Shown one piece after another: positions 12,696 to 26,725 of a stretch of 27,814 nucleotides of DNA (position 1 is the stretch's first letter; each line of letters starts with the position of its first letter). The DNA comes from Candidatus Woesearchaeota archaeon (GTDB lineage Archaea; Nanobdellota; Nanobdellia; Woesearchaeales; UBA10216): NCBI GenBank assembly GCA_016180145.1, contig JACPBT010000007.1, forward strand, positions 1 to 27,814, given 5' to 3'. A model generated the notes under the pieces. The model did not search any database and had not been told where the DNA came from. It saw only the letters and a program-made list of their open reading frames with translations. Position numbers and translations under genes: made by a program.

Positions 12696-12718
12696 CACTG
12701 GACACTGGACATGCCGCC
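12696..12718 (+). repeat. Intergenic motif copy 1 (CACTGGA x2 core)
   Basis: cactggacactggacatgc (12696-12714) is the exact reverse complement of 26707-26725; the match extends to 22 of 23 nt. Confidence 0.75.
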
Positions 12719-13458: not shown

Positions 13459-13466
13459 AAAAAAAA
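13459..13466 (-). terminator. Oligo-T terminator of tRNA-iMet
   Basis: A run of 8 T on the minus strand directly after discriminator A73. Confidence 0.55.
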
Positions 13467-13612
13467 TAGCGGGGGCTGGATTTGAACCAACGACTTCCCA
13501 AGATGCAAGCCTTGACTAGCATCTTCTGTGGGTCTCCCAACCAGGAGGTTATGAGCCGTCCGAAGCAACAGGTCACTGCTACACCGGGCACTCCTAGCTG
13601 CCCTACCCCGCT
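13467..13612 (-). tRNA. Initiator tRNA-Met (CAT) with three introns (13581-13558, 13549-13534, 13526/13525-13495); CCA not encoded
   Basis: Spliced sequence: AGCGGGG TA GGGC AGCTAGGAGT GCCC G GTG|GG CT CAT A|A CCCAC A(G)|GTC GTTGG TTCAAAT CCAGC CCCCGCT A. It has an A1:U72 pair, three G-C pairs at 29-31:39-41, and the anticodon at 13551-13553. Each intron forms a BHB-like structure. Confidence 0.9.
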
Positions 13613-13637: not shown

Positions 13638-13650
13638 TTTATAAAGGTTT
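13638..13650 (-). promoter_or_regulatory. BRE/TATA promoter of tRNA-iMet
   Basis: Minus strand AAACC-TTTATAAA, 26 nt upstream of tRNA nucleotide 1. Confidence 0.65.
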
Positions 13651-26702: not shown

Positions 26703-26725
26703 GGCCGCATGTCCAGTGTCCAGTG
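26703..26725 (-). repeat. Intergenic motif copy 2 (inverted relative to 12696-12718)
   Basis: Plus strand gcatgtccagtgtccagtg at 26707-26725. Confidence 0.75.

Follow-up and report, generated by a model that had tools for sequence, protein, structure and literature searches.

The window, a 27,814-nucleotide stretch of contig JACPBT010000007.1 from a Candidatus Woesearchaeota archaeon, carries on its minus strand an archaeal initiator tRNA-Met(CAU) gene with three BHB introns (13612–13467). The gene extends from A1 at 13612 to the discriminator A73 at 13467 and is without an encoded CCA. Exon 1 (nucleotides 1–29; 13582–13612, minus strand) is identical or near-identical to its counterparts in intron-poor orthologues. 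It is followed on the same strand by intron 1 (13558–13581), which has 24 nt, lies at position 29/30 and has a full hBHBh' motif, and by exon 2 (nucleotides 30–37; 13550–13557), an 8-nt micro-exon that holds the anticodon CAU. Intron 2 (13534–13549, minus strand; 16 nt) occupies the canonical position 37/38 and is of the relaxed hBH type. Exon 3 (nucleotides 38–45; 13526–13533, minus strand) is a second 8-nt micro-exon, and intron 3 (13495–13525, minus strand; 31 nt, position 45/46) is of the relaxed HBh' type with a 4-nt 5' bulge. Exon 4 (nucleotides 46–73; 13467–13494, minus strand) completes the gene. The arms read from the minus strand are the 5' acceptor strand AGCGGGG, a D-arm, the T-arm GTTGG TTCAAAT CCAGC, the 3' acceptor strand CCCCGCT and the discriminator A. 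A TATA-box-like TTTATAAA at 13638–13645 (minus strand), about 30 nt upstream of A1 and present also upstream of the orthologues, is a putative promoter element. A run of eight T directly 3' of the discriminator (13459–13466, minus strand) is likely to be the terminator, by analogy with the usual archaeal oligo-T termination signal.

Removal of the three introns leaves a 75-nt RNA that folds into a clean cloverleaf at -35 kcal/mol and that ARAGORN calls tRNA-Met(cat). The pairs A1:U72 and G29–G31:C39–C41 are marks of archaeal initiator tRNA. The spliced product has both, together with the anticodon CAU, and all three are kept in 25 orthologues. The unspliced locus gives no match by ARAGORN or Rfam in the window, and in a search of the whole genome the Rfam tRNA model misses it at E values as high as 1. 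When introns are permitted, ARAGORN wrongly calls a tRNA-Leu(caa) with a 51-nt intron there. Genes of this kind are invisible to ARAGORN and Rfam, so genomes of the lineage look as though they lack an initiator tRNA; Kaneta 2018 noted that the tRNA sets of such DPANN genomes are not completed by standard tools (PMC5829648). No second initiator-like tRNA gene was found in the 859-kb, 86%-complete assembly, in which only about 24–28 tRNA genes are detectable.

A scan of the genome for hidden tRNAs by T-arm and acceptor yielded one further candidate, outside the window. In this 132-nt tRNA-like gene (G000:C65:4-135, minus strand) the acceptor and T arms are perfect; neither ARAGORN nor Rfam reports it, and it is probably another multi-intron tRNA. 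The genome holds 32 occurrences of the motif CACTGGACA, whereas about 6.6 would be expected; many are 7-nt tandem copies, and in the window the motif is found at 12696–12714 and 26707–26725. It also occurs just downstream of the initiator tRNA genes of L006, L014 and L083, which are other Woesearchaeota.

Orthologous loci are present in public genomes of Candidatus Woesearchaeota and in one of Nanoarchaeia; the relatives' genomes are about 1 Mb in size. The comparison set consists of 25 non-redundant orthologous initiator tRNA genes with 74 annotated introns (62 distinct) at 10 sites: 7/8, 13/14, 15/16, 29/30, 37/38, 43/44, 45/46, 46/47, 53/54 and 59/60. Intron load ranges from 0 to 5 per gene, with five introns in L006, L007, L023, L028 and L033 and four in five more orthologues. 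As annotated from sequence, the five introns that single Woesearchaeal orthologues reach exceed the published maximum of 'up to three', which is given for archaeal tRNA genes (PMC8450103). A pattern scan of metagenomes was unspecific: among the 80 loci listed, of 120 matching stretches, one was a true initiator tRNA gene.

Pairing within these introns is specific to register. Across the 62 distinct introns, the central helix in the strict register is canonical in 219 of 248 cells (88%), as against 30–49% in shifted registers. The intron 1 site is occupied in 18 of the 25 genes with compensatory changes in the intron helix, which is paired in 90 of 90 cells and has at least three pair types at two positions. 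In the intron 3 helix, three pairs differ between L001 and L003 and all are compensated. At the level of sequence comparison, the cloverleaf product, the recurrence in orthologues with compensatory changes and the register-specific pairing confirm that the introns are real and beyond chance. The site of the third intron slides among orthologues, from 43/44 in L014 and L025 through 45/46 to 46/47 in L009 and L010, with a matching central helix each time. The 45/46 introns of L001–L007 and L033 comprise at least three unrelated sequence types within one genus, in which introns 1 and 2 are nearly identical; the pattern suggests rapid turnover at the 45/46 position.

The BHB geometry applied here has a 4-bp central helix with a 3-nt bulge on either side, and each strand is cut two nucleotides 3' of its half of the helix. 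When an intron separates exon nucleotides X and Y, the central helix joins X-5 to X-2 with intron n-5 to n-2; X-1, X and i1 form one bulge, and n-1, n and Y the other. Intron 1 fits this strict geometry, with four of four pairs, one of them G.U, between C24–G27 and UCGG. Its bulges are U28-G29-U and A-C-G30, its outer helix has two base pairs (G22:C32 and C23:G31), and its intron helix has at least five. Intron 2 likewise has a fully paired central helix, C32–A35 (CUCA) with UGGG including one G.U, and a 3' bulge A-G-A38. An intron helix is lacking in the strict register, as in most orthologues, and the outer helix, with G31:C39 and G30:C40, has 2 bp before the removal of intron 1 and 5 bp after it.

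Intron 3 departs from the strict geometry. The strict register (40–43) is ruled out with two of four pairs, and a junction at 44/45 plus 45', which would leave the variable loop AAGUC, is ruled out with three of four. A relaxed register joins C39–A42 (CCCA) with UGGG (13500–13497) in four of four pairs and leaves a 4-nt 5' bulge; it has a 3' bulge A-A-G46, an A38:U47 pair and a 6-bp intron helix. The 5' cut could fall at 44/45 instead of 45/46, which would give a 4-nt variable loop, AGUC, in place of AGGUC. Orthologues L004, L007, L023 and L028 are strict at the 45/46 site. The local minimum-energy fold of exon 3 with intron 3 is exactly the relaxed motif, with an ensemble frequency of 0.54 and a z of -2.35; local folds around introns 1 and 2 favour competing hairpins. 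The preliminary description also noted that UGGG of intron 2 can fold back on CCCA (UGGG-AGA-CCCA), and this fold is indeed possible at a cost of 2.6 kcal. A bare BHB motif scan of the precursor was not discriminating, with 224 four-pair candidates compared with 199 in shuffles. UGGG stands in both introns, which allows a cross pairing between the 5' splice site of intron 2 and the 3' splice site of intron 3 (13495–13549, minus strand); splicing at such a BHB-like motif would leave out exon 3. Four pairs make up its central helix and five its outer helix. The central helix by itself takes 2.8 kcal to form, both helices together take 9.3 kcal, and the motif is seen only in the L001–L003 clade.

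Each motif demands about 8 nt of the upstream exon (at least two for the outer helix, four for the central helix and two for the bulge) and about 3 nt of the downstream exon. With just 8 nt in each of exons 2 and 3, G30–C32 and A38–A42 must serve two motifs. The preliminary description assigned G30-G31-C32 to the bulge and outer helix of intron 1 and also to the outer and central helix of intron 2, and all seven of its nucleotide-role statements are correct. Its parallel assignment of A38 and C39–A42, as bulge and outer helix for intron 2 and as outer and central helix for intron 3, is borne out by the motif assignment, as is its statement that the full anticodon-stem helix under intron 2 needs intron 1 to be out first. 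In the model, the same nucleotide is needed twice by the intron 1 outer helix and the intron 2 central helix, and again by the intron 2 outer helix and the intron 3 central helix. The three cores, each a central helix with its intron helix, have no nucleotide in common, and their formation costs add, to 13.4 kcal for all three. The motifs were described as mutually exclusive. That term is apt for the complete motifs, which collide at the outer helices, but for these only, since the cores share no nucleotide. Complete motifs would thus be unable to coexist, and the precursor would refold between cut-and-ligate cycles. With all cores compatible in the model, an endonuclease of broad specificity might not be bound to a single order. 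The clash between complete motifs may serve as a safety interlock against the loss of an 8-nt exon.

Fold energies give the three introns different standing. Formation of the intron 3 core takes 0.7 kcal in the full precursor and 0.3 with intron 2 out; with intron 1 out it takes 6.0, because the completed anticodon stem competes with it. The intron 1 core costs 7–8 kcal in every splicing state because the G+C-rich D-stem must open. Intron 2 costs 4–6 kcal. The nearest-neighbour model makes the motifs of introns 1 and 2 expensive in every splicing state (6–8 kcal), with no clear gain for intron 2 after removal of intron 1. The one clear preference in the model is for intron 3 before intron 1 (0.7 versus 6.0 kcal). 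The model predicts that the primary transcript natively adopts the relaxed motif of intron 3 and gives it up on removal of intron 1.

EndA and an RNA ligase presumably remove all three introns. Intron 3 would leave first, since its relaxed motif is the predicted native fold of the precursor and can form only while the 3' strand of the anticodon stem is left free. Intron 1 could leave at any point relative to intron 3, including together with it. The canonical intron 2, without an intron helix of its own, would lean on the anticodon stem and leave last. Three BHB introns in an initiator tRNA, with overlapping motifs and stepwise removal in which intron 2 is last, are in our judgement the probable explanation of the locus. 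We infer the order itself from thermodynamics and structure.

Removal might instead follow no obligatory order, if the endonuclease recognises each core of central helix and bulges alone while the RNA breathes, so that introns leave stochastically. Cores without a common nucleotide and with additive costs would permit this. The DPANN alpha4-type EndAs with an extra loop, which accompany many disrupted tRNAs, are thought to be broad in specificity (PMC5829648), and in Cyanidioschyzon merolae two of three introns are removed in either order (PMC3728597). However, intron 2 lacks an intron helix and would have only a 4-bp helix if the anticodon stem were missing, and the intron 3 central helix uses the same nucleotides as the anticodon stem. 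Moreover, if two neighbouring introns were cut before ligation, the 8-nt exon between them, held by 2–4 base pairs, would be set free and lost. Stochastic removal is accordingly the less likely course, although it deserves to be kept in view. It is very improbable that the refolding is a regulated checkpoint on initiator tRNA supply, as the preliminary description had suggested. The argument for it is circumstantial: with one initiator tRNA gene found, all initiation depends on three splicing events. No regulator, sensor or condition-dependent element is visible, and in close relatives the gene has 0, 1, 4 or 5 introns, which fits neutral gain and loss better than tuned control. No evidence of any kind speaks for the checkpoint.

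The introns end similarly, in TTCGGAC (intron 1), TTGGGAG (intron 2) and TTGGGAA (intron 3), and two origins were offered for this likeness: intron transposition, or convergence to pair with C-rich exon segments. A generic 3' end can be written for the 62 distinct introns as U (33 of 62), the complement of exon nucleotides X-5 to X-2, A at n-1 (53 of 62) and any base (A in 31 of 62). With the exon words CCGG, CUCA and CCCA, the pairing rule yields the ends U-UCGG-AC, U-UGGG-AG and U-UGGG-AA. Convergence is thus the right reading, given that 88% of cells pair and that A at n-1 is so frequent, and sequence comparison supports a pairing constraint with the upstream exon, not transposition, as the source of the similar ends. 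Relatedness of the three introns by transposition within the gene or genome, with the shared TTxGGAx ends as a remnant of common descent, could appeal to the hexamer TTGGGA common to introns 2 and 3, to a match of 11 of 15 positions between intron 1 positions 9–23 and intron 2 (uncorrected P 0.027) and to the intron transposition documented in Thermoproteales (Fujishima 2010, as cited in PMC4090602). It is nevertheless hardly credible here: once their last 7 nt are set aside, the introns resemble one another no more than shuffles do (P 0.3–1.0), and BLAST of the genome returned no other copy of these introns. Across 26 family genomes, the matches of the 17-mer core of intron 3 lie at orthologous initiator tRNA sites or else in coding sequence; an exact match in G021, for example, is no intron and lies in a coiled-coil coding region (A-K-L-R-L-A). 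Furthermore, the pairing rule and the A-rich bulge, seen at all 10 intron sites, together predict the 3' heptamer, and relatives with a strict register at 45/46 end in GGTGGAA, not TTGGGAA.

The apical loop of intron 1, GACCUG (13569–13574, minus strand), is the complement of tRNA nucleotides 43–48 (CAGGUC). Its GACCU is invariant in 14 genes of several genera (this one, L002–L011, L018, L025 and L033), and the stem below it covaries in six forms. Together with the next base (GACCUR), the loop is complementary to nucleotides 43–48, with a duplex of -8.0 kcal/mol. Opposite nucleotide 43 stands a G in genes with C43 and an A in those with U43, L008 being the one exception; these two states may stem from one evolutionary event. 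A 6-nt complement between an intron body and an exon is not rare in a single gene (P ~0.15), so conservation and consistency are all that the idea of loop pairing with 43–48 has to draw on. In this gene, the target is split by intron 3, so a continuous 6-bp loop-exon helix could form only after excision of intron 3. Intron 1 might on this basis carry a built-in timing device, a loop-to-exon helix with nucleotides 43–48 that helps its own splicing, which we regard as doubtful. If true, the loop-exon helix (about -8 kcal) would offset the 7–8 kcal cost of opening the D-stem for the intron 1 motif and would hard-wire the order intron 3, intron 1, intron 2; such a folding helper, encoded by the intron itself, would have no described precedent among BHB introns. 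In L002–L011, L018 and L025, intron 2 retains CACU in its 5' half (CUCCU here; 13534–13549, minus strand), a complement of AGGAGUGC in the D-loop and the 3' strand of the D-stem (nucleotides 17a–24); taken gene by gene, this complementarity does not reach significance.

No EndA gene was found in the 86%-complete assembly by profile search and tblastn, and the gene most likely lies in the absent 14% of the genome. Relatives have exactly one PF01974 match in 25 of 25 searched, in an ORF of about 180–200 aa. The 177-aa EndA of one relative (L040:1255-1785) contains both EndA domains, N-terminal and catalytic; its nearest counterparts are the Nanoarchaeum equitans alpha subunit and the Methanocaldococcus jannaschii homotetramer. 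In having one two-domain EndA gene, the relatives resemble the DPANN lineages with alpha4-type EndA (Kaneta 2018, PMC5829648).

That nested or tightly packed BHB motifs impose an order on splicing has already been published (PMC3978253, PMC8450103), and the present instance adds detail, not a new principle. As summarized in PMC3978253, which cites Sugahara 2007 and Tocchini-Valentini 2009, the last intron forms its motif only after the others have been processed. The tRNAscan-SE 2.0 paper states that in genes with two or three introns one has to leave before the second motif forms (PMC8450103). A close archaeal parallel is with the multi-intron tRNA genes of Thermoproteales (Sugahara 2007 and 2008, as summarized in PMC8450103). 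These hold two or three BHB introns, at canonical as well as non-canonical sites, whose spacing is so tight that a motif forms only when its neighbour has been removed, and they are missed by standard finders. Thermoproteales are Crenarchaeota, whereas the host here is a DPANN Woesearchaeota with a mesophile-like genome of about 45% G+C; they have an alpha-beta EndA pair, whereas the relatives here have a single endonuclease gene of about 180 aa. The nested-intron pre-tRNA of Tocchini-Valentini 2009, as cited in PMC3978253, is likewise processed by sequential rounds of two cuts and one ligation, in which a later motif is completed after an earlier removal. By that account the introns there are nested, whereas here they lie side by side with 8-nt exons between them and only the outer helices collide.

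The three-intron tRNA-Ile(UAU) of C. merolae also has three BHB introns, including one at 37/38 (PMC3728597). Experiments on its splicing order showed that the flanking introns leave first, in either order, and that the 37/38 intron is always last (PMC3728597); the order predicted here, with intron 2 at 37/38 last, matches it. In contrast to the present gene, C. merolae is a eukaryote, a red alga, and its motifs (D-stem, 37/38 and T-loop) fold independently, without shared nucleotides. The many introns at varied sites in one lineage recall the intron-transposition families of Thermoproteales (Fujishima 2010, in the form cited in PMC4090602), but near-identical introns at different sites, which characterize those families in that citation, were tested for here and not found.

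The initiator tRNA series of Woesearchaeota, with 0–5 introns at ten sites in 25 genes, amounts to a natural experiment on the gain, loss and sliding of BHB introns. The orthologue series also bears on how much of the motif an alpha4-like endonuclease needs. For the organism itself, with a sole initiator tRNA gene found, every translation initiation would depend on three successive splicing events.
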